Shown here piece after piece: positions 1 to 20,710 of a DNA stretch of 22,594 nucleotides. Source of the stretch: Candidatus Micrarchaeota archaeon. GTDB taxonomy: Archaea > Micrarchaeota > Micrarchaeia > Norongarragalinales > UBA8480. How positions within the stretch are numbered: position 1 is the stretch's first letter; each line of letters starts with the position of its first letter. The stretch covers positions 1-22,594 of the forward strand of contig JAZDHP010000040.1 in assembly GCA_043805855.1 (NCBI GenBank), given 5' to 3'. The translations under genes were made by a program, and so were the position numbers. The notes below the pieces were generated by a model. The model did no database searches, was not told where the DNA came from, and worked only from the letters and a program-made list of their open reading frames with translations.

Positions 1-372
1 GTAAAGCACTGAAAATGAATAGCCAGTTTGTGGCGTCGCGTGGTCAAACTCCAACAACGTCTTCTGAACTATCTTGTAACGGGAGTCGTACACCCTGCAA
101 TTCAGGTAAATGCCTATTACTGAAGCTTCTTTTATGCTTGTGAGCTTCTGGAGGACTTTCTTGGCGCAAATGGACTTCCCGCTGCCTGTTTTGCCATAAA
201 TGAGTGCGTTTGTTGGCTTTCTGCCTTGCACTATTGGCGCTAGGCAAGTCATTATTTTTTTGATTTCGTTTTCACGGTGAATTAAAGTTTCTGGCACGTA
301 ATGTGGGGATAGAACGCTTTTGTCTTTGAAAATCGCGTCTTTTTTTAATAAATCGTGAAAGCTTGTCTCCAT
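1..372 (-). CDS. cdc6: Orc1/Cdc6 replication initiator, 5' part (runs off window start)
   Basis: Missing from the ORF track. Manual translation from ATG at 372: METSFHDLLKKDAIFKDKSVLSPHYVPETLIHRENEI...NALIYGKTGSGKS...IYLNCR. IFKD..VLSPHYVP, Walker A and YLNC are Orc1/Cdc6 hallmarks. Confidence 0.93.
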   Translation of the reverse strand, partial: METSFHDLLKKDAIFKDKSVLSPHYVPETLIHRENEIKKIMTCLAPIVQGRKPTNALIYGKTGSGKSICAKKVLQKLTSIKEASVIGIYLNCRVYDSRYKIVQKTLLEFDHATPQTGYSFSVLY

Positions 373-482
373 ACAGTATAACTTGTGTCCTAAGGATTTA
401 AAATCAATTTCTTTGAGGGTTTTTGCCATACGCATAGCTTTTTAATTTATTACACTGTAAATAATGCGTTAATTATCTTTAC

Positions 483-489
483 AGGTGGT
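483..489 (+). promoter_or_regulatory. Shine-Dalgarno site of sepF
   Basis: AGGTGGT 9 nt upstream of ATG 499. Confidence 0.6.
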
Positions 490-498
490 ATATACAAA

Positions 499-861
499 AT
501 GGGTTTATTTCAGAATTTGTCAGGCATGCTTGGCGTAAAAAGGGAGATGAATGTAGAAGAGTTTATGTCAGCAGCTGAAGCTGAAGAAGTTGACGTAATG
601 CACCAACGTGCAGATTTCTACGTAAAACCAATTGCACTACAGTCAGAAGCTGATTTGAAAATAGTTGAAGAGGAACTAACAAACAAGAACCTCGTGTTGT
701 TGAACGTTACTCCAATTGCGCGTAACCCAGCTAAACTAAAAGCAGCTGTTGAACACTTGCGAAAATTCACAATGGGAATCAACGGCGACATTGCTCGCAT
801 TGACGAAGACAAAATCATGCTAACTCCAGCAAACGTCAAAATCGTAAAGAAAAGACATTAA
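499..861 (+). CDS. sepF: Archaeal cell division protein SepF (DUF552)
   Basis: 120 aa; N-terminal amphipathic segment, then NLVLLNVTPI...INGDIARIDEDKIMLTPANVKI, matching the archaeal SepF core (GDIA..., LTP..VKI). Confidence 0.88.
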   Translation: MGLFQNLSGMLGVKREMNVEEFMSAAEAEEVDVMHQRADFYVKPIALQSEADLKIVEEELTNKNLVLLNVTPIARNPAKLKAAVEHLRKFTMGINGDIARIDEDKIMLTPANVKIVKKRH

Positions 862-867
862 AAACAT

Positions 868-928
868 TACTTTACCTTTTTGCTTTTTAATTTTTTCTTT
901 TATTTTCTTCTTTCCTTCTTGTTTTTTA
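868..928 (+). terminator. Oligo-T/pyrimidine tract after sepF (archaeal-type terminator)
   Basis: Long T-rich run directly after the sepF stop. Confidence 0.55.
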
Positions 929-951
929 ATTCCGTTCAGCGTAAGCTTTTC

Positions 952-1713
952 ATGCCAGTTGAATGGAAGACTACGCGGGTTGGAGATACTGTTGTCCACC
1001 ACTGGAAGCGACACAATCCGCGCGAGATTCTAGCTGCTTTGGCGGAAGAGCCAATTGAAACTAAGGGAGAAACGCCTCAAGTTAGGCGATATAAGCTCGG
1101 TAAATTAAACTTGGCAGTTAGGCAATTACCGCGGGTAAGTGGTTATGCTACTAATACTGGAAAGCTGTTTGCAACTTTAAAACAAATGCAGCGAGAGCGA
1201 ATGCCAATTATAGAAGTTCCAGTTGCAATAATAAAGGAACCAGCTAATGTTTTTAAAGTTGTGACTGTTTGGAAAAAAGGCGCGAATTCTTTACTGTCGT
1301 GGGTTAATGAAGCGGATTTGAGTTCAAGAGTAAGTTTAAACGAAGTACGTGATGTTGCAAATAGTGTGGCTCGTAAGGTTGCACAGTTACACGTTGCTGG
1401 TTATGCTCACGGTAATTTAAAATTAGATAATTTTGTCATTACTCCTTCAGGCGTTCCGCTGCTTGTTGACTTTACTAAATTACAGAAGGTTGGAAAACAA
1501 AGTTTACCTGCTAAACGGGGTGACAATTGGTTATATGGGCATATTGACGCGGGCGAGTTAAATCTTTTATTTGACAATTTTGCATCGTTGCAAGTAGCTA
1601 AGTTAAAAACAAAAAATAAAACTGAAAGATTAAATTTTTATCGACAAGCTGTGAATGATCTATGGTCAGAGTATAGTAAGTGGTATACTCACTATTCTGG
1701 AATTAAAGAGTAA
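952..1713 (+). CDS. Kinase-fold orphan protein (Kdo/WaaP/RIO-like), probable pseudokinase
   Basis: Start moved to ATG 952 because the upstream extension is a poly-T tract. Contains EVPVA, VAQLHVAGYAHGNLKLDNF and LVDF, the catalytic-loop and DF motifs of atypical kinases, with Asn in place of the catalytic Asp. Confidence 0.7.
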   Translation: MPVEWKTTRVGDTVVHHWKRHNPREILAALAEEPIETKGETPQVRRYKLGKLNLAVRQLPRVSGYATNTGKLFATLKQMQRERMPIIEVPVAIIKEPANVFKVVTVWKKGANSLLSWVNEADLSSRVSLNEVRDVANSVARKVAQLHVAGYAHGNLKLDNFVITPSGVPLLVDFTKLQKVGKQSLPAKRGDNWLYGHIDAGELNLLFDNFASLQVAKLKTKNKTERLNFYRQAVNDLWSEYSKWYTHYSGIKE

Positions 1714-2140
1714 GGTTAGCTTTTATTTTTGTCGCAATTTCTTGCAATTTTTCTTCGTTTGTCTCTACTCGTGGGCCGGGGCGGTAGAGAAATTCCCGCG
1801 GGTCGTATTTCATTACTCCTCTATCGCCTTTTTTGCGCGGCACCACAGGTCCGGGTCAGTGTTCAATGTTTTGTCCACCTGCTGTGCCTTCGTTCCACGC
1901 GCAGTTAAACCCCTCGGCACCGTAAGTTTTCACAAGCGCGTCTTTTACTTTCAAAACTAGTTCATAGAGGTCTTTCAATTCGTAATAGTCAAGGTCGTCG
2001 ATTTTGGCAACGCACCGTTTTGGACAAACCAAAGTATGGCCTGGGGTTATTGGAATGTTTGTGAGAAATGCGAACGCAGTGTAGTTGCTGATGATTGTTC
2101 TCTTTTTGACGTTTTCACTTGTACAAAAAAGGCAAGACAT
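1703..2140 (-). pseudogene. HIT-family nucleotide hydrolase interrupted by an in-frame TGA at the histidine triad (pseudogene or sequence error)
   Basis: MSCLFC...PITPGHTLVCPKR...GFNCAWNEGTAGGQNIEH* continues in the same frame as PGPVVPRKKGDRGVMKYDPREFLYRPGPR...KIKANLTL* to TAA at 1703-1705, giving a full-length 145-codon HIT frame. Confidence 0.85.
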
Positions 2141-2168
2141 ATTCATTATTTTTGTAGAGGGCGAGTTA

Positions 2169-2278
2169 TTTAAGCAAGGCAGCGCAAATGCCTTGCTTAA
2201 AGTCTTCAGCACAAATCTTCGATTTGTGTCTGAGTCTTCGAGTTATGGCTCGAAGCCCATACACGTAGCCAACGTGTA
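2169..2278. repeat. Cluster of four abutting inverted repeats (structured element / candidate ncRNA or MITE)
   Basis: Perfect stems 2169-2181/2189-2201 (13 bp), 2210-2217/2221-2228 (8 bp), 2236-2242/2249-2255 (7 bp), 2260-2266/2272-2278 (7 bp). Confidence 0.8.
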
Positions 2279-2325
2279 AGCTATAAAAACGCGGAGTTCC
2301 TTTTATTTGAGAGGACGTTAGTGAA

Positions 2326-3363
2326 ATGGTTAACTTGGATGCGTCTTGTTTGAAACTAGAGCTCACGCCTGAAGCGGCGATTGGCATTGTGCAAAAAGAA
2401 GTTGTACGCCACGGTTGGAAGAAGTACGACTTGAGCGATATTGTAACTGTTTACGTTCCGTTTTACGTTTTTTCATTTGACGTTATTGCAGAGGGCGGAG
2501 CGCCACCTGGCAAAGCAGCGATGAACGCTAACACTGGCGAAATGAATGAATTTGTTCCAGTACTTTTAGAGAGGCCAATTCAGCGCCAAAAAAAGACGCC
2601 AGAAGGTATGGAAGTTGAAGTTGAACCAACGAATGTAAGGGAAAGTGAAGTTGAAAAAGTCGCGGCGGTAAAGTTAGCGAATATGCTTGGTGCAAAGCGG
2701 GAGAATATTGTGATCTCCGCAGTTTCGAAGATTTACGTTCCGTTTTTCAGAATGTGGATTGACGTTGCTGGTGATAGTTTCAAAATTGAAGTTGACGGCG
2801 CTCTTGGATACGCTTCTGGAAGCGACGCTATACCAAAGCGTGAGAAAACATGGGAGGAAAGTACTAGTGACACAATTCAAAAAATGCAATCTCCTTCAGG
2901 AATAGCGCAATTAGCAGGCGCAACTGGTGGCGAAGTTGCAAAAAGTTTCGGCAGTTCTGGCCAGAATAAGTACATCCAGTGGGCGATTATTGCGGTTGTC
3001 ATTATTGTTATTGGCTATTTTGTAATGCAGCAGTTCAACGCGCAAGTTGCGTGTGTTCCTGACGAGGAGTTTCTCTCTACACCGCAATTCTTTGGGTTGA
3101 TTGGTGCGAGGAAAATTGTTCCGCAGGAACTAGATGCTGATTCAATGTACGTTGCAGGTAAGTGCACGTTTTCATCGCGGGAGAATGACAAGTTTATAGT
3201 TGTACAAGTGCTTTTGAAAAACTCTGGAGTGCCAATTTCAACTACGGTGGTAAATGTAACGCTGCAGAGTGACGTTCCGGCAACGCGTAGTTTCCAAATT
3301 GACTTTCCGTCAAGCGATGTAACTGGTGACTACGAGTTAGCTGTAGAGCGGCTTGTTGGTTGA
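2326..3363 (+). CDS. Hypothetical single-pass membrane protein with duplicated N-terminal domain
   Basis: 345 aa; two related units (YVPFYVFSFDV..MNANTGE / YVPFFRMWIDV..VDGALG), a TM helix WAIIAVVIIVIGYFVM, and a beta-rich C-terminal domain; GAGGA upstream. Confidence 0.8.
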   Translation: MVNLDASCLKLELTPEAAIGIVQKEVVRHGWKKYDLSDIVTVYVPFYVFSFDVIAEGGAPPGKAAMNANTGEMNEFVPVLLERPIQRQKKTPEGMEVEVEPTNVRESEVEKVAAVKLANMLGAKRENIVISAVSKIYVPFFRMWIDVAGDSFKIEVDGALGYASGSDAIPKREKTWEESTSDTIQKMQSPSGIAQLAGATGGEVAKSFGSSGQNKYIQWAIIAVVIIVIGYFVMQQFNAQVACVPDEEFLSTPQFFGLIGARKIVPQELDADSMYVAGKCTFSSRENDKFIVVQVLLKNSGVPISTTVVNVTLQSDVPATRSFQIDFPSSDVTGDYELAVERLVG

Positions 3364-3408
3364 AAAGTTGTTTTAAATTTAGTGTTTCTTTTTCTTTGCT
3401 GGTAGCTA

Positions 3409-4188
3409 TTACTTTGGCTTTACTCTACTTGTTTCCATCGCTTTGAGCGCTTTGTTCACGCGTGCTAGTGTTGCCATTATTGTCTGCGCTTCTGTTTGCG
3501 CTACGTTTGTGCGGCCGAATACGCGTTTAAATGCAACTTTTGCCTTGTCGGGATCGCGCATTTTTGGCCTTAGGTAAATTACTTTTTCGAGTTTTTTCAA
3601 CTCGTCTACAATTTCGCAGAACAAATAGTTCAACGCTCTTAAATCTGCAGTTGTAGCTGTTGTGAATTTTGACTTCGTTTTACCGCTAAAGAACAACGCG
3701 TATAACGTAACAGCGACAGAGTGTGACAAGTTTAACACTGGGTGCGCTCTTTCTGCGGGGATAGTTGCAATTACATCGCATTTTTGTAAATCTTCGCCAG
3801 TTAATCCGTTTCCCTCTGAGCCAAACACAATTGCGATTTTTTTCCCGTTTATTTTATCTTTTAGCGAAGGTAGGGAAACGCAGTTTTTCAGCGAGTTTGC
3901 AAACCGCCGTACGACGCCCGTTGTTCCAATAACTAAGTCAAATCCAGCAATTGCCTCGTCAAGCGAGTCGCAAATCTTTGCGTTTTCGTAAACTTCTTTT
4001 GAGTGTTTTGCGTACTTTTCTGCTTCTATGTTCAACGCGCATTTTGGGCGTACAATTGCTAAATCTACAACTGAGAAGTTTTTCGCTGCGCGGCAAGCCA
4101 TGCCAACGTTCATGGAATACTCTGGACTTACAAGTACAACGCGTACTGGCAGTGGTTTTTTTACTTTTCTACTTCCGGTAAATTCCAT
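3409..4188 (-). CDS. trmJ: TrmJ/LasT-family SPOUT tRNA 2'-O-methyltransferase
   Basis: VVLVSPEYSMNVGMACRAAKNF, IGTTG, IVFGSEGNGLT..DLQKCD and PVLNLSHSVAV are SPOUT/TrmJ motifs. Confidence 0.88.
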   Translation of the reverse strand: MEFTGSRKVKKPLPVRVVLVSPEYSMNVGMACRAAKNFSVVDLAIVRPKCALNIEAEKYAKHSKEVYENAKICDSLDEAIAGFDLVIGTTGVVRRFANSLKNCVSLPSLKDKINGKKIAIVFGSEGNGLTGEDLQKCDVIATIPAERAHPVLNLSHSVAVTLYALFFSGKTKSKFTTATTADLRALNYLFCEIVDELKKLEKVIYLRPKMRDPDKAKVAFKRVFGRTNVAQTEAQTIMATLARVNKALKAMETSRVKPK

Positions 4189-12885: not shown

Positions 12886-14718
12886 ATGTCTAGCGAGATT
12901 GATGTTGACCAGAAAGCTGTTGACTTGACGCAGTTTTTTTTCAAGACGCCTAGCTATCGCAAGAGTACGGCGTTGTTGTTAATTGCCTCGTTTATTTTTG
13001 GAGTAATTGGCAGGTTAAATTTAACAAAGCCGGAGAGTTTACTTGAAACTTTTCTCTATGGCGGTACTGATGGTATTCTTATCCTTGCGTTGCCGGCAAT
13101 TGTTGCTGCTTTGCTTGCTACGTTTTTCGTTTCTCGCAAGCAGTTCAAAAACGGGTTCAAGTACTTTTCACTAATTGCGCTTGTTTCTGCAGTACTTTAC
13201 GGGTTAGTGTTGCTGTTTGGTTTACTCGTTGGACAAAAATTGTTCGCTGGTTTAGAAGAGAGTTCATTTGTAATTATTGGCAACGCGCTTGTGCTAGTAT
13301 TGTGGTTTGCATCAACCTGGATTGCACTAGCATATAGAAAAAAAGCGTTGTTTTTGTGCACCTTGCAACCATTAACGAGCCTCGCGTTTATCGTTTTGTG
13401 GAACAAATTTTCAATCATTGAATCGAGCGTTGCGTTTAGCCACTCGCCTTTAGTTGCAGTGTTTAAACTCGCAGTTGCGTCTATAATTCTTTTAATCGCA
13501 GTTGGGGCGCTTGGGTTTATTATAAACGCGCCGACTAAGCGTAATTTCGGAATTTCAACTATTGACACTATTACTATGTTTTTCGCACAGTGGGTTAGCG
13601 GTAGTAAAGATTTAGAGCACGTGTTGGCTGAAAATGGAGAGTTCATTACAACTGAAGTTGGCGTAATCCAGTTTAAGCAAGGTTCAAAAACAAAAGGCGT
13701 TTTTGTTGTTCCGCAACTACACTATGGCCCAATTGGCAATCTTGGCGGTAGTGAATTTCCAGGTTTAATTTCTTCTTATTTAAACAAACAAGTTAATGCG
13801 CCGGTGTTTGTCTTCAAAGGCGCAGCTAACCATGACTTTAACCCAGTTTACTCAAGCGACGTTTCTATAGTTAACGCAGCGTGTATTGATGCAATGCATG
13901 AAAGTAACAAACGTGCGGTTAGTGCAATTTCTTTTCTCAACGGAAGAAGCGGCTACTCGCAGGTATTTGGGCTTGATGTTGACGGCACAGCGTTTCTAAC
14001 TTTGTCGCGCCAGCCGCAGAACTGCGAGGATATTGACCAAGCGCTTGGGAGAGCGTTGCATAACAAGATTCTTTCAATGGGCTTTAACGAAGCTATTTTA
14101 GTTGACCGGCACCACTGCAAGAGAGACGGCGTTTTGTTCGGCGCAGGTTCAAAAGAGTATCTAGATTATGAAAATGCAATTGAAAACATCGAACGCTATG
14201 GTGGTAAACTATGGTTCGGCGCAGCTACGTCGCGCAGAGAGTTTACAGTTGAACAAGGTATTGGCAAAGGCGGGTTAAAAGTTTCAGTTATGCAAGTTGG
14301 CAAAAAGAAAAGTTGCTTTATTGTTGTAGATGCGAATAACTGTTTACCTGAATTCCGCAATGCGGTTGTAAATTACATTGGCGATAAATATAGTTTTGAT
14401 TTTGTTGACTTAATGACAACTGACTCGCACGCGGTTAATAGCATTAATGGTATTCACAACCCGCTTGGAGCTAGAGTAAATAGGCAAGAGTTCATCTCTG
14501 CGGTTGACGAAACGGTCAGCGAGGCAATTATGGAAATGGCGCCGTGCACTGCTTCTGCGTACGTTAAACGTTTTGACATTGAAGTGCTTGGCCCACAGCG
14601 TTCAAGTGAATTAGTTATAACTGTAAATTCAATCTTCGCAGTGCTAAAAATCCTCGCGCCGGTTGTTTTCCTTAGTTCAATTGTACTAGCATTCCTGGCA
14701 TTAGTGGCGGTGAAATGA
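12886..14718 (+). CDS. DUF2070 (COG3356) membrane protein
   Basis: 610 aa; about 6 N-terminal TMs, then PQLHYGPIGNLGGSEFP, HDFNPV, DANN, MTTDSH, and a C-terminal TM. Confidence 0.85.
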   Translation: MSSEIDVDQKAVDLTQFFFKTPSYRKSTALLLIASFIFGVIGRLNLTKPESLLETFLYGGTDGILILALPAIVAALLATFFVSRKQFKNGFKYFSLIALVSAVLYGLVLLFGLLVGQKLFAGLEESSFVIIGNALVLVLWFASTWIALAYRKKALFLCTLQPLTSLAFIVLWNKFSIIESSVAFSHSPLVAVFKLAVASIILLIAVGALGFIINAPTKRNFGISTIDTITMFFAQWVSGSKDLEHVLAENGEFITTEVGVIQFKQGSKTKGVFVVPQLHYGPIGNLGGSEFPGLISSYLNKQVNAPVFVFKGAANHDFNPVYSSDVSIVNAACIDAMHESNKRAVSAISFLNGRSGYSQVFGLDVDGTAFLTLSRQPQNCEDIDQALGRALHNKILSMGFNEAILVDRHHCKRDGVLFGAGSKEYLDYENAIENIERYGGKLWFGAATSRREFTVEQGIGKGGLKVSVMQVGKKKSCFIVVDANNCLPEFRNAVVNYIGDKYSFDFVDLMTTDSHAVNSINGIHNPLGARVNRQEFISAVDETVSEAIMEMAPCTASAYVKRFDIEVLGPQRSSELVITVNSIFAVLKILAPVVFLSSIVLAFLALVAVK

Positions 14719-15878
14719 AAAAAATGCGAATTGGTTTCTATACTGACACGTATCTTCCTAATGTCGACGGCGTAGTTTCGCAGGTACTTGCAAGTAAAAA
14801 GGAGCTTGAACGCCGTAAACATTACGTTCACGTTTTCACTCCCGGTACATTGAGCGAAAAGCGCGCGAACCGCGATAAAACAGTTAGTTACTACACTGGC
14901 GTTAAGTTTCCACTTTACTCGCAGTATAAGCTAGCGTTGTTTCCATTTGCCTCTGTTTTTGAATGCAAAAAACGTAATATTGAACTAATTCACTGCCACG
15001 CGTTGGCAACAATGGGCGTTGCAAGTATAGCAACTGCCAAAGCATTGCGTTTACCGTTGGTTGGAACTTTTCACACGATGGTTCCACTTGCAATGCACTA
15101 CGTTACAAGTAACCTGCGTTACCAAGATTTACTTTCAAGCGCAGCGTGGAAAGTAATTGAAGCTTTTTACACTCCGTTTGACATTGTAACTGCGCCGTCG
15201 CACGTAATTGCTGCTTTATTGGAACAGCATGGCGTTGAAAATGTAAAAGTTGTTTCAAATGGCATTGACACTCAATTGTTTAACTCGCGAGTAGCGGGCA
15301 GTCAGACAAAGCGTAAACTAGGAATAAAAAGTGACGAAAAAGTTTTTGTATTCGTAGGCAGAATGACACGGGAAAAACAAGTTGACGTTTTGCTACGCGC
15401 ATTTGCTAAATTGAAAAATGAAAATAAAGGCGACGATGCAAAGTTATTAATTATTGGCGATGGCCCTGCATTTAGCGAAGTAAAAACACTTAGCCGCAAA
15501 CTAGGTTTGAAAAACGTAGTTTTTACTGGCAATGTAAAACACGATGAACTGTCTAATTACTTAGCTGCGTGCGATTGGCAGGTTAGCGCCTCTAATTTTG
15601 AAACGCAAGGCATTGGAATATTAGAGGGAATGGCGTGCGGTAAACCCTGCGTCGGTGCAAATGCACTTGCAATTCCGGAAACCGTAAAAGAAAATTACAA
15701 TGGTTTATTGTTTAAGTCGCTTGATGTTGATGATTGTGCCGCGAAGCTTGAAACTGCTTTGGAAATGAGTGGAAAGAAATATTCTAGCTTATGCAAAGGC
15801 GCCACGCTTACTGGCAAAAAGCACTCAGTTGAAATAACAGTTAACGCGTGGGAAGAGATTTACAATTCAGTTTTATAA
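14715..15878 (+). CDS. GT4 glycosyltransferase (diacylglycerol glucosyltransferase-like subgroup)
   Basis: MRIGFYTDTYLPNVDGV, VGTFHT, SNGID, FVGRMTREK, ETQGIGILEGMACGKP. Confidence 0.92.
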   Translation: MKKMRIGFYTDTYLPNVDGVVSQVLASKKELERRKHYVHVFTPGTLSEKRANRDKTVSYYTGVKFPLYSQYKLALFPFASVFECKKRNIELIHCHALATMGVASIATAKALRLPLVGTFHTMVPLAMHYVTSNLRYQDLLSSAAWKVIEAFYTPFDIVTAPSHVIAALLEQHGVENVKVVSNGIDTQLFNSRVAGSQTKRKLGIKSDEKVFVFVGRMTREKQVDVLLRAFAKLKNENKGDDAKLLIIGDGPAFSEVKTLSRKLGLKNVVFTGNVKHDELSNYLAACDWQVSASNFETQGIGILEGMACGKPCVGANALAIPETVKENYNGLLFKSLDVDDCAAKLETALEMSGKKYSSLCKGATLTGKKHSVEITVNAWEEIYNSVL

Positions 15879-15914
15879 ATATTTTTTCAAGCAATATTAC
15901 TTTTTTTTGTTGCT

Positions 15915-16601
15915 TTAAGCTAATTTCTGTAAATTTTCCAGTGTTGGAGCTTCGTTTAGCGTTTCATCATTTACAATTACTGTTGGCGCGTTGGTTGTCT
16001 TGTACATTGAAGATAGAATAGCAATTGACGGCATTGTTTCTTTATAGTCTAAGTTAAATGAGTACGCTAGAATGTTTCCTGGGTTTTGTTGCTTAAATTG
16101 TCCAATAGCTTCGTCGTATGCAGTGCATTCGCCGCAGTTAGAAGTGTAAAAGTACAGCACAAGTGTTAAGTCAGTGCCGCACAGGTTTTTCAATCGTTTC
16201 CAGAACAAGTAATCGCGCGATTCAAGTGCAAAGTAACGCTGTTCCAACGCTAACACGTCGTTTGTTTGTCCGCGCTTAGCTTCAAATAAACGTAATCTTC
16301 GTCCCACGTCTGCAGTTTGCACGCCGAGGTTGTGTGCGCTGTCTTCAACTGCTTTACAGAGAGTTGCTTTCATTTCGAGATTATTTGCAATTGCCGGGTC
16401 GCTTTCAAGAAGAGATAGCACTTCTAGGTTGACGTTGCTTGTTTGTAGTGAATCTATCTCGTTGTAAAACTGGTCGTTTACCTGGCTTGCTAGGCCATTT
16501 CCAATCCAAATGCCAACTGCGAATATAACTATTGTAATAACTAGCGTGCTTAAGTGAAGCGGGATTGAAAGCGAACGTTTAACCTTTTCCTTATCTTCCA
16601 T
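15915..16601 (-). CDS. Membrane-anchored protein with coiled region and C-terminal thioredoxin-like CxxC domain
   Basis: N-terminal TM (LVITIVIFAVGIWIG), LYFYTSNCGEC, and APTVIVN (cis-Pro motif). Confidence 0.75.
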   Translation of the reverse strand: MEDKEKVKRSLSIPLHLSTLVITIVIFAVGIWIGNGLASQVNDQFYNEIDSLQTSNVNLEVLSLLESDPAIANNLEMKATLCKAVEDSAHNLGVQTADVGRRLRLFEAKRGQTNDVLALEQRYFALESRDYLFWKRLKNLCGTDLTLVLYFYTSNCGECTAYDEAIGQFKQQNPGNILAYSFNLDYKETMPSIAILSSMYKTTNAPTVIVNDETLNEAPTLENLQKLA

Positions 16602-16613
16602 TTTTGTTTTTCG

Positions 16614-17807
16614 TCACCATTTTTGCTTTTTGCCGAATAACTCTTCGCCAAAAGTAACAAGCCAGAATATCGACATGAAGTACGTATACGCTATTAAAAA
16701 TAGTAACAGTTTAGGAATTGAAAGTACGGCGCGTTCATCGTGGAATAATTTTCTCCCAGCTAATAGCCATAATATTCCAAGAATAAGTATTAAGATTGAA
16801 ATTGTTTGTATTGCGCCGAAACTGTAAATTAAACCCTCGAGGGAAAACCACGAGAAAAATTGGCCGGTTATAATTTGCCACAATACACTTGCAAAAATTA
16901 AAACAACTAGCAAAATCGTAATTACCCCTAGTGGCAGTACAACGGTTCCTAAGTCGCCGTATTTTGCGCTTAGTAATGTACGGTGCTTGTAGAAATTGCG
17001 TATCCCGCCGCGGTTCCAGCGTACTCTTTGACGTACAAGTTGTGAAAACGTTGACGGCACTTCAGTGTAAACATCGGCGTTTATTGAACCAACTATTTTA
17101 TAATTATGCGCTTGTATCCTGTAAGCCATTTCCTGATCTTCTAAAATGCTACTCTCGTCAAAAAGCCCCACTTTGTTAAACACTTTACTGCGAAACACGC
17201 TGAACGGCCCCGGCGTTACAGTGACGCTGTCGACAAAAGTTAATAATTTTCTGCTAAGCATGACGAAAATGTACTCGACGCTTTGTAGTTTTTCAATAAT
17301 TGTCTTTGGCTCGTGTACTTTTACAGCTGCAGTTACTGCCATTAGCTTTTCGTCTACAAAGAACGAAATAAGCTGATGTAGTGAGTTTTTTTCCGGAAAA
17401 GAATCTGAGTCGAGAGTTGCAATTAACTCGCATTTTGCAGCGCGTATACCTGCGTTCAACGCGCTGCTTTTACCAACGCCCCGGTGTTTATTTTGTAATA
17501 ATTTCACGCCGTGGCCGTAGTTCTTCACTTCGCGAACAGTATTATCTGTACTTCCGTCGTCAACTACAATTACTTCCATTTTGTTCTTTGGATAATTTAG
17601 CGCGAACACTGCGTCGAGGGTTTTTGTAATTGTACCTGCTTCGTTTAGCACGGGTATAACAATTGAAACAGCCGGCAACTTGTTTTTCTGCAATAGTGCT
17701 GGCTCTTCGTTAAGTTCATTGCGGTGCTTGTACAAAAGTAGAAAGAAGAATACACTAGCGTACAGTGCGACAAACGCAATTGTATACTCTAGAATTGGAA
17801 CTTGCAT
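16614..17807 (-). CDS. Processive GT2 beta-glycan synthase-like glycosyltransferase (CesA/PgaC-like)
   Basis: VSIVIPVLNE, VDDGSTD, KSSALN, LDSDS, LEDQE and QRVRW motifs; one N-terminal and several C-terminal TMs. Confidence 0.92.
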   Translation of the reverse strand: MQVPILEYTIAFVALYASVFFFLLLYKHRNELNEEPALLQKNKLPAVSIVIPVLNEAGTITKTLDAVFALNYPKNKMEVIVVDDGSTDNTVREVKNYGHGVKLLQNKHRGVGKSSALNAGIRAAKCELIATLDSDSFPEKNSLHQLISFFVDEKLMAVTAAVKVHEPKTIIEKLQSVEYIFVMLSRKLLTFVDSVTVTPGPFSVFRSKVFNKVGLFDESSILEDQEMAYRIQAHNYKIVGSINADVYTEVPSTFSQLVRQRVRWNRGGIRNFYKHRTLLSAKYGDLGTVVLPLGVITILLVVLIFASVLWQIITGQFFSWFSLEGLIYSFGAIQTISILILILGILWLLAGRKLFHDERAVLSIPKLLLFLIAYTYFMSIFWLVTFGEELFGKKQKW

Positions 17808-17870
17808 ATCTCTAGTATTAACCCATTTCTCCCTTAAAAATAACCGCTAGAGCAGCAAAACTAATAGTTA

Positions 17871-17932
17871 ATAAAATTAAAAAGAAAAGAGAAACAAATA
17901 AGAAAATAAAGAAATAAAAGAAAAAAATAAAA
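17871..17932 (-). terminator. Long T-rich tract on the minus strand, downstream of the displaced EF-2 3' end
   Basis: About 60 nt, overwhelmingly A with a few G/T on +; begins about 14 nt past the duplicate EF-2 stop codon. Confidence 0.55.
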
Positions 17933-17945
17933 GGAATTCTTCTGG

Positions 17946-17974
17946 TTTAATCCATGAAGAACTGAGCTGTTGGG
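17946..17974 (-). repeat. Duplicate of EF-2 3' end (att-like direct repeat, distal copy)
   Basis: TTTAATCCATGAAGAACTGAGCTGTTGGG vs 18523-18551 TTTAGTCCATGAAGAACGCTGCTGTTGGG: 25/29 identical; encodes PTAQFFMD*. Confidence 0.9.
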
Positions 17975-18024
17975 TAAAAAACCGAAACGGCACTCTTAAA
18001 AATAATGATTGGTCTAGCAGTTGT

Positions 18025-18216
18025 ATGGAAAATGTAAATATAGATATGGTTTATAAAGAAATACAATTGGTTAAGCAGAAGCTCGATTACCTTAATGATA
18101 TTCTAGTGCCAGAAGAGGAACTTGCGGATAACGAATCGCGCGAAGTAGACAAGCTACGCGCTGAGGCTCTGGAAGAACACAAGAAAGGCCAGACTATTTC
18201 AGTTGAAAAACTTTGA
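18025..18216 (+). CDS. Small acidic antitoxin (RelB-type partner)
   Basis: 63 aa, acidic, ends EEHKKGQTISVEKL; directly upstream of relE; TATA-like CTTAAAAA about 25-30 nt upstream. Confidence 0.75.
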   Translation: MENVNIDMVYKEIQLVKQKLDYLNDILVPEEELADNESREVDKLRAEALEEHKKGQTISVEKL

Positions 18217-18230
18217 AGGTCGCTATCCCA

Positions 18231-18500
18231 ATGTTTAACGTTGAATTTAAACAGTCGGCCAAAAAAGAGCTTGACGAACTTCCAGAGGATTATAGAATTA
18301 AAATAATTGAAGCGGCTAAGTTTCTCGCTGGTGAGCCATATCCCTTTAGGTTCTATGATGTTAGAAAAGTAAAGGGAAAAGAAGGCGTTTATGGGATCCG
18401 AATTGGGAAATATCGATTTCTCTACGAAATTTTCAAAGAACAACGGCTAATTCTAATATTCAAAGTAGGGCAAAAGTCGGATAATACCTACAAGTTCTAG
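18231..18500 (+). CDS. relE: RelE/ParE-family toxin
   Basis: MFNVEFKQSAKKELDEL...PYP..DVRKVKG...IRIGKYRFLYEI. Confidence 0.88.
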   Translation: MFNVEFKQSAKKELDELPEDYRIKIIEAAKFLAGEPYPFRFYDVRKVKGKEGVYGIRIGKYRFLYEIFKEQRLILIFKVGQKSDNTYKF

Positions 18501-18523
18501 CGCTATTCGGGCGCGTCCCTTTT

Positions 18524-20710
18524 TTAGTCCATGAAGAACGCTGCTGTTGGGAGTTGTTCCACTTCGCCTTTGCGTTTCCTGATTGAGAGGATGGTTTTGT
18601 TTTGCAATTCGCTTGGCATTTTCTCGTAGCCAGCGTATTCAGTGTACCAAATTGCTCGTCCCTGCGACGCACCTCTAATTTCTGAAGCGAATCCGAACAT
18701 TTCGCTAACTGGAACTTTTGCGTGGAGTGTAACTGTTTCTCCCTCTTGTTGCATGTCTATAATGTGTCCACGTCGGCCTTGAATTTGGCTAATGATGCCG
18801 CTCATGTAGTCACTTGGACTGTTTACAACGAGTTTTTGCTTTGGTTCAAGTAACATTGGCTTTGAACTTAGCATTCCTGCGTAAATTGGCCTCTTGATTG
18901 CCGGAATTATCTGTGCTGGACCACGGTGAGCTGGGTCAACGTGGATAGTTGCATCTTCAAGTTTTACTTTCATCCTCACGCATTCTTCCTTTGCAAGTGG
19001 ACCTTGTTTCATTGCTTCGAGAAACGCTTGAATTACAAGTTCCTGTATTTCTTGCAGGTACTGTACTCCTTTTGTGACGTCGACGAAAATGTTATTTTCA
19101 TAAACGCTCATTACCTTCCTTGCTTCGTCGCGCGGGAGCCCTGCTTTGATTAACCTTTCTTGTAGGTCTTTGCCTTTCATTTTATCGTGTAGTTCCCCGT
19201 CGGCAAACGCCTTTACTACGCTTTCTTCAAGTGGTTCAACACTTACTTTGAACTTGTTGTGTTTGTTTGGCGATTTACCGTCAAGAGTTGGACCAGCTGC
19301 TGTTACGGTTTCATGGTAAACCACAATTGGCGGAGAAGTTACAATTGCAACTCCGCGTTCCTTTTCAATTTTATATTCGATGATTTCTAAGTGAAGTTCT
19401 CCCATTCCAGAAAGTAAGTGTTCGCCAGTCTGCTGATTTATCTCAACGCGAATTGTTGGGTCTTCTTTTCCAATTTTGTGCAAAACGTCAACAAGTTTAA
19501 CCAAATCCTTTGGGTTCTTTGCTTCTATTGATTTAGTGACAACTGGATCAGAGTGGTGTTTAATTTTTTCAAACGGAGTAATTTCGCCTTCAGAAACAGT
19601 TTCACCAGCGTAAACTTCGTGAAGTCCAACAAGTGCAACGATGTTTCCAGCAATAGCGCTATCTACTAATACTCTATCAGGGCCCATGTAAAGTGCAACT
19701 TGTTGTACTTTTTCATTTTTGTACCTAGAAGCTATCCACAATTCAGTGCCTTTTGTAATTTTTCCACTGTATAATCGACCTACTGCAACTTCGCCAGCAT
19801 GTGGATCATTTTGAATTGCAGTTACGACGAAACAAGCTCTGCCTTTTGGATCGCAGTTAACCATTGCTTCCCCCTCTTTGCTTTTCGGGTCGCCGTGCCA
19901 AATTGTTGGAATGCGGTATTTTTGCGATTCAACTGGAGAAGGTAAATGTTCAATAACCATGTCGAGGATAATGTCGTCCAGTGGTGCGATTTTCTGCAAG
20001 TCAGCATGTTCGCCGTTTAGACATTTTTCGTACATTTGCTTAAACGAAAGATTGTTCTTTTTCATAACTGGATAAGAAATTGCCCATTTGTTGTACGCGG
20101 TTCCAAAGCAAACGTTTCCAGATTCGACGTTTATCTTCCACTGTTCTTTAAACTCAGCTGGTCCATAAGCGTCAATAAGTTTGTTTACTCCTGTAATAAT
20201 TTTTATAAAACGTTGTTGCATTGCAGTGTTGTCAAGTTTAAGCTCGTTGATAAAACGGTCAATTTTGTTAATGAATAGTACTGGTTTGACTTTTTCCTTC
20301 AACGCTTGACGCAGCACCGTTTCAGTTTGAGGCATTACTCCCTCGACACAATCAACAACAAGGATTACGCCGTCAACTGCACGAAGTGCGCGAGTAACGT
20401 GTCCGCCAAAGTCAACGTGGCCAGGCGTGTCAATTAAGTTAATCAAATAGTCGACGTCGTTTATCTTTACTGGCACTGAAATGTTAGCAGCTTTAATTGT
20501 AATCCCGCGAGCTTGCTCTTGCTCATCGTAGTCAGTTACGCGCTGTTCTCCGGCAAGTTCTTTTGAAATTAAACCAGCTCGTGCGATGAAAGAGTCAGAA
20601 AGAGTGCTTTTGCCATGGTCAACGTGTGCAACGATTCCTAGGTTGCGAATGTTCTTTTGATTGTACATTAATTTTTGAACGTGTGCTGCCACTGCTTCTT
20701 TAGTTGCCAT
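18524..20710 (-). CDS. fusA: Elongation factor aEF-2
   Basis: AHVDHGKST, RGITI, DTPGHVDF, NKID, GMGELHLEI, diphthamide loop HRGPAQIIP; AGGTG SD at 20722-20718. Confidence 0.99.
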   Translation of the reverse strand: MATKEAVAAHVQKLMYNQKNIRNLGIVAHVDHGKSTLSDSFIARAGLISKELAGEQRVTDYDEQEQARGITIKAANISVPVKINDVDYLINLIDTPGHVDFGGHVTRALRAVDGVILVVDCVEGVMPQTETVLRQALKEKVKPVLFINKIDRFINELKLDNTAMQQRFIKIITGVNKLIDAYGPAEFKEQWKINVESGNVCFGTAYNKWAISYPVMKKNNLSFKQMYEKCLNGEHADLQKIAPLDDIILDMVIEHLPSPVESQKYRIPTIWHGDPKSKEGEAMVNCDPKGRACFVVTAIQNDPHAGEVAVGRLYSGKITKGTELWIASRYKNEKVQQVALYMGPDRVLVDSAIAGNIVALVGLHEVYAGETVSEGEITPFEKIKHHSDPVVTKSIEAKNPKDLVKLVDVLHKIGKEDPTIRVEINQQTGEHLLSGMGELHLEIIEYKIEKERGVAIVTSPPIVVYHETVTAAGPTLDGKSPNKHNKFKVSVEPLEESVVKAFADGELHDKMKGKDLQERLIKAGLPRDEARKVMSVYENNIFVDVTKGVQYLQEIQELVIQAFLEAMKQGPLAKEECVRMKVKLEDATIHVDPAHRGPAQIIPAIKRPIYAGMLSSKPMLLEPKQKLVVNSPSDYMSGIISQIQGRRGHIIDMQQEGETVTLHAKVPVSEMFGFASEIRGASQGRAIWYTEYAGYEKMPSELQNKTILSIRKRKGEVEQLPTAAFFMD

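Follow-up and report, generated by a model that had tools for sequence, protein, structure and literature searches.

A RelE-type toxin-antitoxin operon between two copies of an aEF-2 gene end in a Micrarchaeota genome, and a case for its integrase-free entry through short homology

In a stretch of 22,594 nucleotides from a Candidatus Micrarchaeota archaeon (contig JAZDHP010000040.1 of assembly GCA_043805855.1; this whole stretch is called the window below), a RelE-type toxin-antitoxin operon lies between two copies of the last codons of the gene for archaeal elongation factor 2 (aEF-2, or EF-2), in an interval of 548 bp from which it converges on the aEF-2 stop codon. The probable explanation, to which we give a likelihood of about 0.6, is that the operon was inserted at these codons by a single crossover within short gene-end homology, without an integrase taking part. 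The window is contig C40 of the subject genome, G000, a metagenome bin of 1.03 Mb in 67 contigs that is 92% complete.

The repeat search returned a single 29-nt direct repeat, TTTAATCCATGAAGAACTGAGCTGTTGGG at positions 17946-17974 and TTTAGTCCATGAAGAACGCTGCTGTTGGG at 18523-18551, with the copies 577 nt apart and identical at 25 of 29 positions. The proximal copy (18523..18551, minus strand) is formed by the last nine codons of the 728-aa aEF-2 and constitutes its working end, PTAAFFMD*. The distal copy (17946..17974), read in the EF-2 direction, gives PTAQFFMD* with its stop at 17947-17949 and is part of no plausible gene; a 52-codon open frame running through it was rejected as a gene, being antisense to the antitoxin and devoid of an ATG. 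Identical runs within the two tails amount to 12 and 9 nt, the 12 nt being the longest exact shared word. The match between tails is far beyond chance: its 23 of 27 positions were never reached when the 1.5 kb downstream of EF-2 was shuffled 200 times, and two matches to the repeat pattern, which was derived from the repeat itself, occurred in none of 100 shuffles of the window. With 29 nt, the repeat is longer than usual transposon repeats and just below the 30-bp working threshold of a survey of restriction-modification (RM) units (PMC2853133), and no terminal inverted repeats were found at the cassette ends by the repeat search. Beyond the distal copy, a tract that is T-rich on the EF-2 strand, as read from the letters (17808..17945, minus), leads to a gene for a GT2 glycosyltransferase (16614..17807, minus; PF00535, 2.2e-31). 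The tract is probably the original EF-2 terminator together with the GT2 upstream region, and GT2 follows EF-2 as a conserved neighbour throughout the genus.

The same site was found without a cassette in sister species. EF-2 was present in all 41 related genomes, with 30 loci returned, and the genus has three other species (G001, G002 and G003); GT2 follows EF-2 in the three of them as well as in the metagenome contig L075. In G002 and G003 a single PTAQFFMD* tail precedes 95-98 nt and then the GT2 gene, the peptide of these working tails being that of the displaced distal copy in the window, and the G003 tail differs from that copy at 2 of 27 bases (25/27 match). In G001, EF-2 ends in PTADFFMD* and is accompanied by a decayed cassette, in which the end of the antitoxin gene is frameshifted and the toxin gene is shortened to ~28 codons. 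In L075 the cassette adjoins an EF-2 ending in PTAAYFMD* and its toxin is 91% identical to that of the window, while its GT2 protein is 92% identical to the one of G000, against 67-71% for the other species. The AA type of tail is common to the proximal copy of the window and to L075, another carrier of the cassette. The distal copy hence agrees with the sister species, the proximal one with the cassette carriers, and this combination, a displaced tail with the sister-species peptide and a working tail of the AA type, fits a cassette that arrived together with the EF-2 end of its donor.

The disposition of a cassette between repeats of a gene end is general in Micrarchaeota. A scan of the phylum covered 41 distinct RelE-type loci for repeats matching at 19 of 22 positions or better and placed 300-1200 nt apart, and such repeats bracketed the toxin-antitoxin operon at 10 of them, compared with 9 non-flanking pairs in the same DNA. 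The repeated sequence is the 3' end of a tRNA-Leu at L153, ~204 nt of the RtcB 3' end around the pair at L154 (1278-2227, G018:C41; another toxin-antitoxin pair directly adjoins this one), the last codons of a convergent 290-aa gene at L060 (AVGTRVRV* vs VVGTRIRV*), the 3' end of a major facilitator superfamily (MFS) gene at L073 and, at L152, the region just upstream of a gene judged by eye only to encode glyceraldehyde-3-phosphate dehydrogenase. A second EF-2 tail was displayed by 2 of the 30 EF-2 loci, the window and L020 (3661-4334, G018:C2), which belongs to another family of the order. At L020 a PIN toxin (PF01850, 7.9e-23) and its 67-aa partner converge on EF-2, and a second copy of the ...GDFLD* tail is found 644 nt on (23/27 matching, 0/200 shuffles); this duplication is independent of that in the window. 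As a separate observation, three repeat copies stand between successive cassettes at L056 (1386-3015, G028:C2) and L149 (1205-2275, G102:C89), resembling short arrays; the one at L056 comprises a RelE-type pair followed by a second small gene pair that is vapBC-like by eye.

The subject genome itself contains further cases. Scanning G000 for repeats matching at 21 of 24 positions or better and 250-2500 nt apart produced 79 pairs, many of them tandem paralogues, against 0, 2 and 0 in three shuffles. From these, 16 isolated pairs were picked by eye and the cargo of nine intervals was run against Pfam, and seven of these turned out to contain genes typical of selfish or defence elements: MazE with PIN, a DUF2283 pair, an AAA_14/DUF4143 ATPase (twice), a Schlafen-AlbA_2 ATPase, LAGLIDADG and AbiEi/AbiEii. 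At least seven other small accessory cassettes of G000, at L161 (G000:C8:3500-6100), L159, L160, L162, L163, L164 and L166, are flanked by 27-62-nt repeats of neighbouring gene ends. One ATPase cassette lies at the RpoN stop codon between two ...IDEIKHFQRF* copies that form a perfect repeat, and this RpoN-tail site is empty in G001, G002 and G003 alike. Across the cases in G000 and other genomes, repeat lengths range from ~24 to 206 nt.

Differences between repeat copies were then considered for what they say about the origin of the copies. The EF-2 tails of the window differ in three codons, two of these synonymously. The two RtcB ends of L154 show 17 base differences in 204 nt, distributed over 15 codons that are synonymous without exception (15/15), the copies at L073 present three synonymous and one conservative change, and the partial tRNA copy at L153 differs in one compensated base pair and in one G-C pair turned into G-U, so that pairing of the T-stem is kept. 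When seven coding repeats are pooled, 26 synonymous codons stand against 11 non-synonymous ones, the latter mostly at the repeat edges. Differences that are silent or structure-preserving indicate that the copies evolved as working gene ends in two lineages, and not as a target duplication that has drifted.

An earlier note on this DNA, made from its letters, had described much of this arrangement, and most of its description holds. The recurrence of the EF-2 tail 577 nt downstream, the two synonymous codons among the three that differ, the long T-rich tract behind the distal copy (with the GT2 gene following it), the small size of the element (under 0.6 kb, with two open reading frames and no integrase) and the relBE-like cargo, whose toxin is RelE-like with 1wmi as its nearest solved chain, were all confirmed. 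Its proposal that the tails are the ends of two EF-2 alleles is supported by the silent-site pattern and by the tail types of sister species and carriers, and the empty site that it had predicted, PTAQFFMD* followed directly by the T tract, was encountered in two of the three other species, with GT2 behind the tract.

Sequence relationships within the cassette family show that it is horizontally mobile. Close relatives of the toxin fall into 16 protein clusters at 64-91% identity, and seven close loci, of which L078 and L079 are one sequence in two contigs, represent six genomic contexts; among them, only L075 stands beside EF-2, and relatives of the same size occupy five other contexts (L076, L077, L078/L079, L080 and L096). 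At the DNA level, L076 and G001 share 89.6% identity in the antitoxin gene, and the proteins encoded next to it in L076 have matches of no more than 38-48% identity in G000 and G001. Antitoxin genes so similar within such divergent flanks show that the cassette has crossed between distant genomes. At L079 a perfect 26-nt repeat surrounds a 541-bp cassette, its right copy being formed by the 5' start of the coding sequence that follows downstream. An AT-rich flanking repeat at L096 (17/20 match, shuffle maximum 15) was left uncounted, both of its copies being promoter-like TATA regions. Relatives of the toxin were searched for in viral contigs and none were found.

The entry that we propose for the window would involve incoming DNA that carried its own EF-2 end and derived from a related lineage in which the cassette already stood beside EF-2. 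One reciprocal crossover between a small circular DNA, comprising the gene-end homology and the cassette, and the chromosomal gene end would leave the donor EF-2 end completing the gene, and would move the last nine codons of the recipient, together with the terminator tract, 577 bp downstream; the stretch GCTGTTGGG, where the earlier note placed the crossover, is a candidate for it. The circle may have originated from a random donor fragment with the cassette beside the gene, as in G001, or from recombination between existing repeats. The cassette encodes no enzyme for this step, for which host homologous recombination is one possible agent and a relaxed recombinase supplied in trans another, and the lower bound of ~25 nt among the repeats could correspond to the minimum homology for recombination. 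Once inside, the addictive toxin-antitoxin pair would favour its own retention, and conserved genes may be favoured as sites since lineages differ little in the ends of such genes. On this view the window is one instance of a general route, free of integrases, that brings small selfish or defence cassettes into Micrarchaeota at conserved gene ends. The parts of this scheme that we infer are the circular intermediate, the enzyme and the donor identity of the tails. A wider generalisation is only tentatively put forward, and we would not bet on it: that small addictive or defence cassettes of DPANN archaea pass through a recombinase-free cycle as minicircles tagged with a conserved gene end (EF-2, RpoN, RtcB, tRNAs), host recombination inserting and releasing them. 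If true, such a cycle would explain both the movement of toxin-antitoxin modules between genomes and their placement at conserved gene ends.

Several observations weigh against homology-driven entry. With 27-29 nt, the homology comes close to the minimum that homologous recombination needs, and the copies now share at most 12 identical consecutive bases; moreover, which of the tails is the donor's depends on the position of the crossover. No recombinant segment was detected in EF-2, sliding identity of G000 to G001, G002 and G003 being flat at ~80%. Neither a circle, nor an excision product, nor a spanning read was seen, the sole DNA run found (X1) containing the GT2 and EF-2 genes of a ~95%-identical relative and no contig that covers or bridges positions 17730-18998. 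At threshold, 31 of the 41 RelE-type loci have no flanking repeat. Local alignments for a decayed second EF-2 tail in G001 and L075 scored at chance level, so that these genomes carry the cassette without a recognisable second tail, and the repeat is either not always left or has been lost. Differences at four-fold sites between G000 and L075 amount to 12/44 in the cassette and 47/107 in the GT2 gene; if the insertion is older than the split between the two, the distal tail is more intact than expected of neutral DNA, and either the insertion in G000 is younger, implying repeated entry at the same site, or the distal copy is constrained. Finally, the perfect repeats of L079 and of the RpoN case are equally compatible with a true target duplication.

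Other routes were weighed as well. The cassette could be an integrase-less, cis-mobilisable mini-element whose repeats are attL and attR attachment (att) sites; the tyrosine recombinase acting on them would come from elsewhere in the cell or from a helper element. A restored gene end between direct repeats, including the 3' end of a tRNA at L153, is the classic att signature, element-borne gene ends would be under coding selection while integrated, so that the synonymous pattern fits this route as well, and G000 does encode two tyrosine recombinases, with open frames of ~400 aa. These two, the only tyrosine-recombinase matches in the genome, would nonetheless have to serve at least nine different repeat sequences, no common core is visible by eye in the flanking repeats of the nine G000 intervals, the repeat length is variable and no integrase lies in or beside the examined cassettes. 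The attL/attR reading of the tails in the earlier note is thus a candidate at most, and we consider site-specific integration in trans unlikely, and less likely than homology-driven entry. A related thought, that a larger integrase-bearing island once sat at the EF-2 end and was deleted down to the toxin-antitoxin pair and two att sites, draws on the expected survival of such pairs during decay and on the larger block at the EF-2 site of L075 (with its 443-aa protein, a pair that is vapBC-like by eye and a GT2 5' fragment). Nevertheless, cassettes of the same family, with ~505-590 bp between repeats, recur in unrelated contexts as single operons, and the window region yielded no fragment of an integrase, which renders a remnant improbable. 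Of the two options left by the earlier note, mini-element or island remnant, the small mobile cassette is therefore favoured by the same-sized relatives in five other contexts, and the stump of a big island is not.

A true long target duplication would instead start from a staggered break of ~26-29 nt, whether cut by a nuclease (casposase-like or another) or arising in break repair, with capture of a linear cassette, fill-in and later divergence of the copies. Repeat lengths are similar in two cassettes of the same family (29 nt here and the perfect 26 nt of L079), and casposon duplications of 1-27 nt, with the aEF-2 3' end as target, are described in the part of PMC4046053 on which we draw. 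On the contrary, Cas1 was found neither in G000 nor in the 11 other genomes of its family (0/12; it is present in 6 of the 68 genomes of the order), terminal inverted repeats are missing from the cassette ends, and repeats reach 206 nt. The copies also differ at synonymous or structure-keeping sites (15/15 codons in L154), unlike the drift of a dead copy, and in the window it is the working copy and not the dead one that departs from the sister-species tail. A staggered-break origin accordingly appears quite improbable to us. Less credible still is an artefact, in which two strains were joined by the assembly or the match arose by chance: the genome is indeed a 67-contig metagenome bin, but no shuffle out of 200 reaches the match, a chimera through the repeat is unlikely because the 12-nt shared word is too short to mis-join an assembly, the independent assemblies G001 and L075 hold the cassette at the same EF-2 end, and the layout is seen again at a further EF-2 gene (L020) as well as at numerous other genes.

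Turning to the cassette itself, its left end (17975..18024, plus strand) can be aligned with the equivalent region of L075 and G001 and contains a TATA-like box, cttaaaaata, at 17995-18004, 21-30 nt ahead of the antitoxin ATG, which may act as the promoter. The antitoxin gene (18025..18216, plus; 63 aa) is conserved upstream of the toxin in 7/7 close loci. No Pfam, NCBIfam or PDB match was obtained for its product, which was assigned neither to RelB nor to any other named antitoxin family. This unnamed family accompanies RelE-type toxins across the phylum, and an alignment of ten of its sequences (A2) shows invariant Y10, L23, P29 and G55 and a conserved (I/V)PEEE stretch. The toxin gene (18231..18500, plus; 89 aa, with an alternative TTG start at 18213) matches PF05016, the ParE/RelE superfamily, at 1.3e-8 and 35.8 bits for a cut-off of 23, and its match to NCBIfam TIGR02385 RelE_StbE, of 18.3 bits, stays under the cut-off of that model. 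Its nearest solved chain is Pyrococcus horikoshii aRelE (1wmi_A, E 1e-5, residues 3-81). These best matches are of the RelE type; ribosome-dependent mRNA cleavage is a candidate activity of the toxin, a ParE-like poisoning of gyrase being the alternative. The operon is closed by a terminator-like hairpin and T-run (18500..18522, plus), with a stem at 18500-18514 followed by GTCCCTTTTT, which is a consensus match only and abuts the EF-2 stop codon.

The predicted toxin-antitoxin complex scored 0.81, the best of three controls scoring 0.00; of 157 solved complexes, 116 attain the mark used for such scores, as do 2 of 215 mismatched pairs. Contact agreement between runs was 100%, the predicted local distance difference test (pLDDT) of the partner was at least 83, and in the model the antitoxin wraps the toxin with its C-terminal two thirds. 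This prediction may reflect likeness only, because a like complex, aRelE-aRelB, has already been solved. With that P. horikoshii complex (1wmi) the pair shares a toxin that can be aligned with aRelE and a small upstream antitoxin predicted to wrap it, and it differs in an antitoxin that matches no named family and no solved chain. The two open reading frames of the pair are the whole gene content of the cassette, which has no transposase, integrase or other mobile-element gene, and no integrase was found in the other open reading frames of window positions 14500-20500 either. The toxin is single-copy in G000, and one distant homologue of the antitoxin occurs on contig C29.

Regarding the surroundings, the aEF-2 gene (18524..20710, minus; 728 aa) displays seven EF-G/EF-2 Pfam domains, among them GTP_EFTU, EF-G_D2, EFG_III, EFG_IV and EFG_C, its product is 89% identical to the EF-2 of the sister species, and its current C-terminal end, the cassette-side tail, reads ...GEVEQLPTAAFFMD*. 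Past the working stop, the EF-2 strand (17947-18526, minus) shows no T-run before the old T-rich tract 577 nt on, and EF-2 transcripts may for that reason run antisense across the whole toxin-antitoxin operon. Downstream of GT2, a 228-aa open reading frame (15915-16601, minus) has no Pfam match, and a homologue of it adjoins a GT2 gene in L079 too. In L075 (positions 1-3700) a larger block, composed of a 443-aa secreted-looking protein and a second small gene pair that is vapBC-like by eye only, lies between the relBE-type cassette and GT2, along with a duplicated 5' piece of GT2, 128 codons long and 76-78% identical to the complete genes; a foreign gene start was therefore left at that site as well. 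In G002 and G003 (L010 and L039), a tail-like stretch ~20 nt past the EF-2 stop was considered as the scar of an old event and discarded as indistinguishable from chance; in G002 it matches at 18/27 positions, a value reached by 2% of shuffles with 30 loci tested, and is not significant.

Some EF-2 genes of the related genomes exhibit features of another kind. In G005, G013 and G014 their frames extend to ~1240-1257 aa through a large intein-like insert after residue ~30-45. In G005 (L040, G005:C17:6000-16500) a short open reading frame ~2 kb downstream repeats the EF-2 N-terminus and the first residues of the insert; just past it comes a stretch that weakly matches the EF-2 C-terminus, and it adjoins a fragment that by eye resembles ribosomal protein S7 as well as repeated small membrane-protein genes.

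The locus and its relatives provide a concrete and testable route of entry at conserved gene ends, through short shared sequence and without an element-encoded enzyme. EF-2, RpoN and similar essential genes are repeated landing sites in reduced DPANN genomes, so that their last codons can be foreign, an aspect that matters for annotation and for marker phylogenies. Toxin-antitoxin modules are credited with exceptional horizontal mobility in PMC2701414, and in the portion of that work available to us no chromosomal entry route is given for a bare two-gene unit. A search of the literature for repeat-flanked toxin-antitoxin cassettes in archaea, with subscription journals outside its coverage, returned none. 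The case adds to a known and little-studied kind of insertion and has some value for understanding how toxin-antitoxin modules move.

Among known systems, integrative elements that supply a substitute gene end are exemplified by e14 and phage 21 at icd of Escherichia coli, and integrase-less, att-flanked elements sharing the att site of a known helper by the streptococcal cis-mobilisable elements (CIMEs) and the tycheposon satellites. With the latter, the cassette of the window has in common a small cargo between att-like repeats that is possibly moved in trans, although no helper or shared site is evident here. Integrase-bearing archaeal proviruses, plasmids and islands, as presented in the available part of PMC4158269, likewise show an element-borne gene end, the old end as a far-side repeat and mostly silent differences; they have an integrase of their own and are kilobases long, whereas the unit in the window measures 0.55 kb and contains toxin and antitoxin only. 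As to the target, the earlier note had found it unusual that an essential translation factor should be hit, and this does not stand: the 3'-distal part of aEF-2 is reported to host family 1 casposons of Thaumarchaeota (Krupovic et al. 2014, PMC4046053; PMC8464041, both as far as the excerpts at hand go), which makes such a target not new, and L020 supplies a second EF-2 case. Casposons as described there are large and bring along genes for Cas1 and PolB as well as terminal inverted repeats; the cassette of the window has none of these.

The closest layout is that of RM units that entered by insertion with long target duplication. Such insertion of RM units was reportedly treated by Nobusato et al. 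in 2000 (Gene 259:99). In the sections of the bacterial survey that could be consulted (Furuta et al. 2010, PMC2853133), repeats are often found to extend across a start or stop codon, the mechanism is left open and no archaeal case survived the selection. To judge from those sections, the likeness comprises an addictive unit without transposase or integrase, long direct repeats of variable length that are single-copy at the empty site of a relative and often lie across a start or stop codon, and a target gene that stays whole; the window differs in its toxin-antitoxin cargo and archaeal host, and some of the repeats counted here fall short of the 30-bp threshold. The two-lineage signature of the copies in the window speaks against both being derived from the recipient, a point that concerns the mechanism and not the layout, and a repeat made up of one donor copy and one recipient copy, to which the silent-site differences point, is relevant to how insertion with long target duplication comes about.

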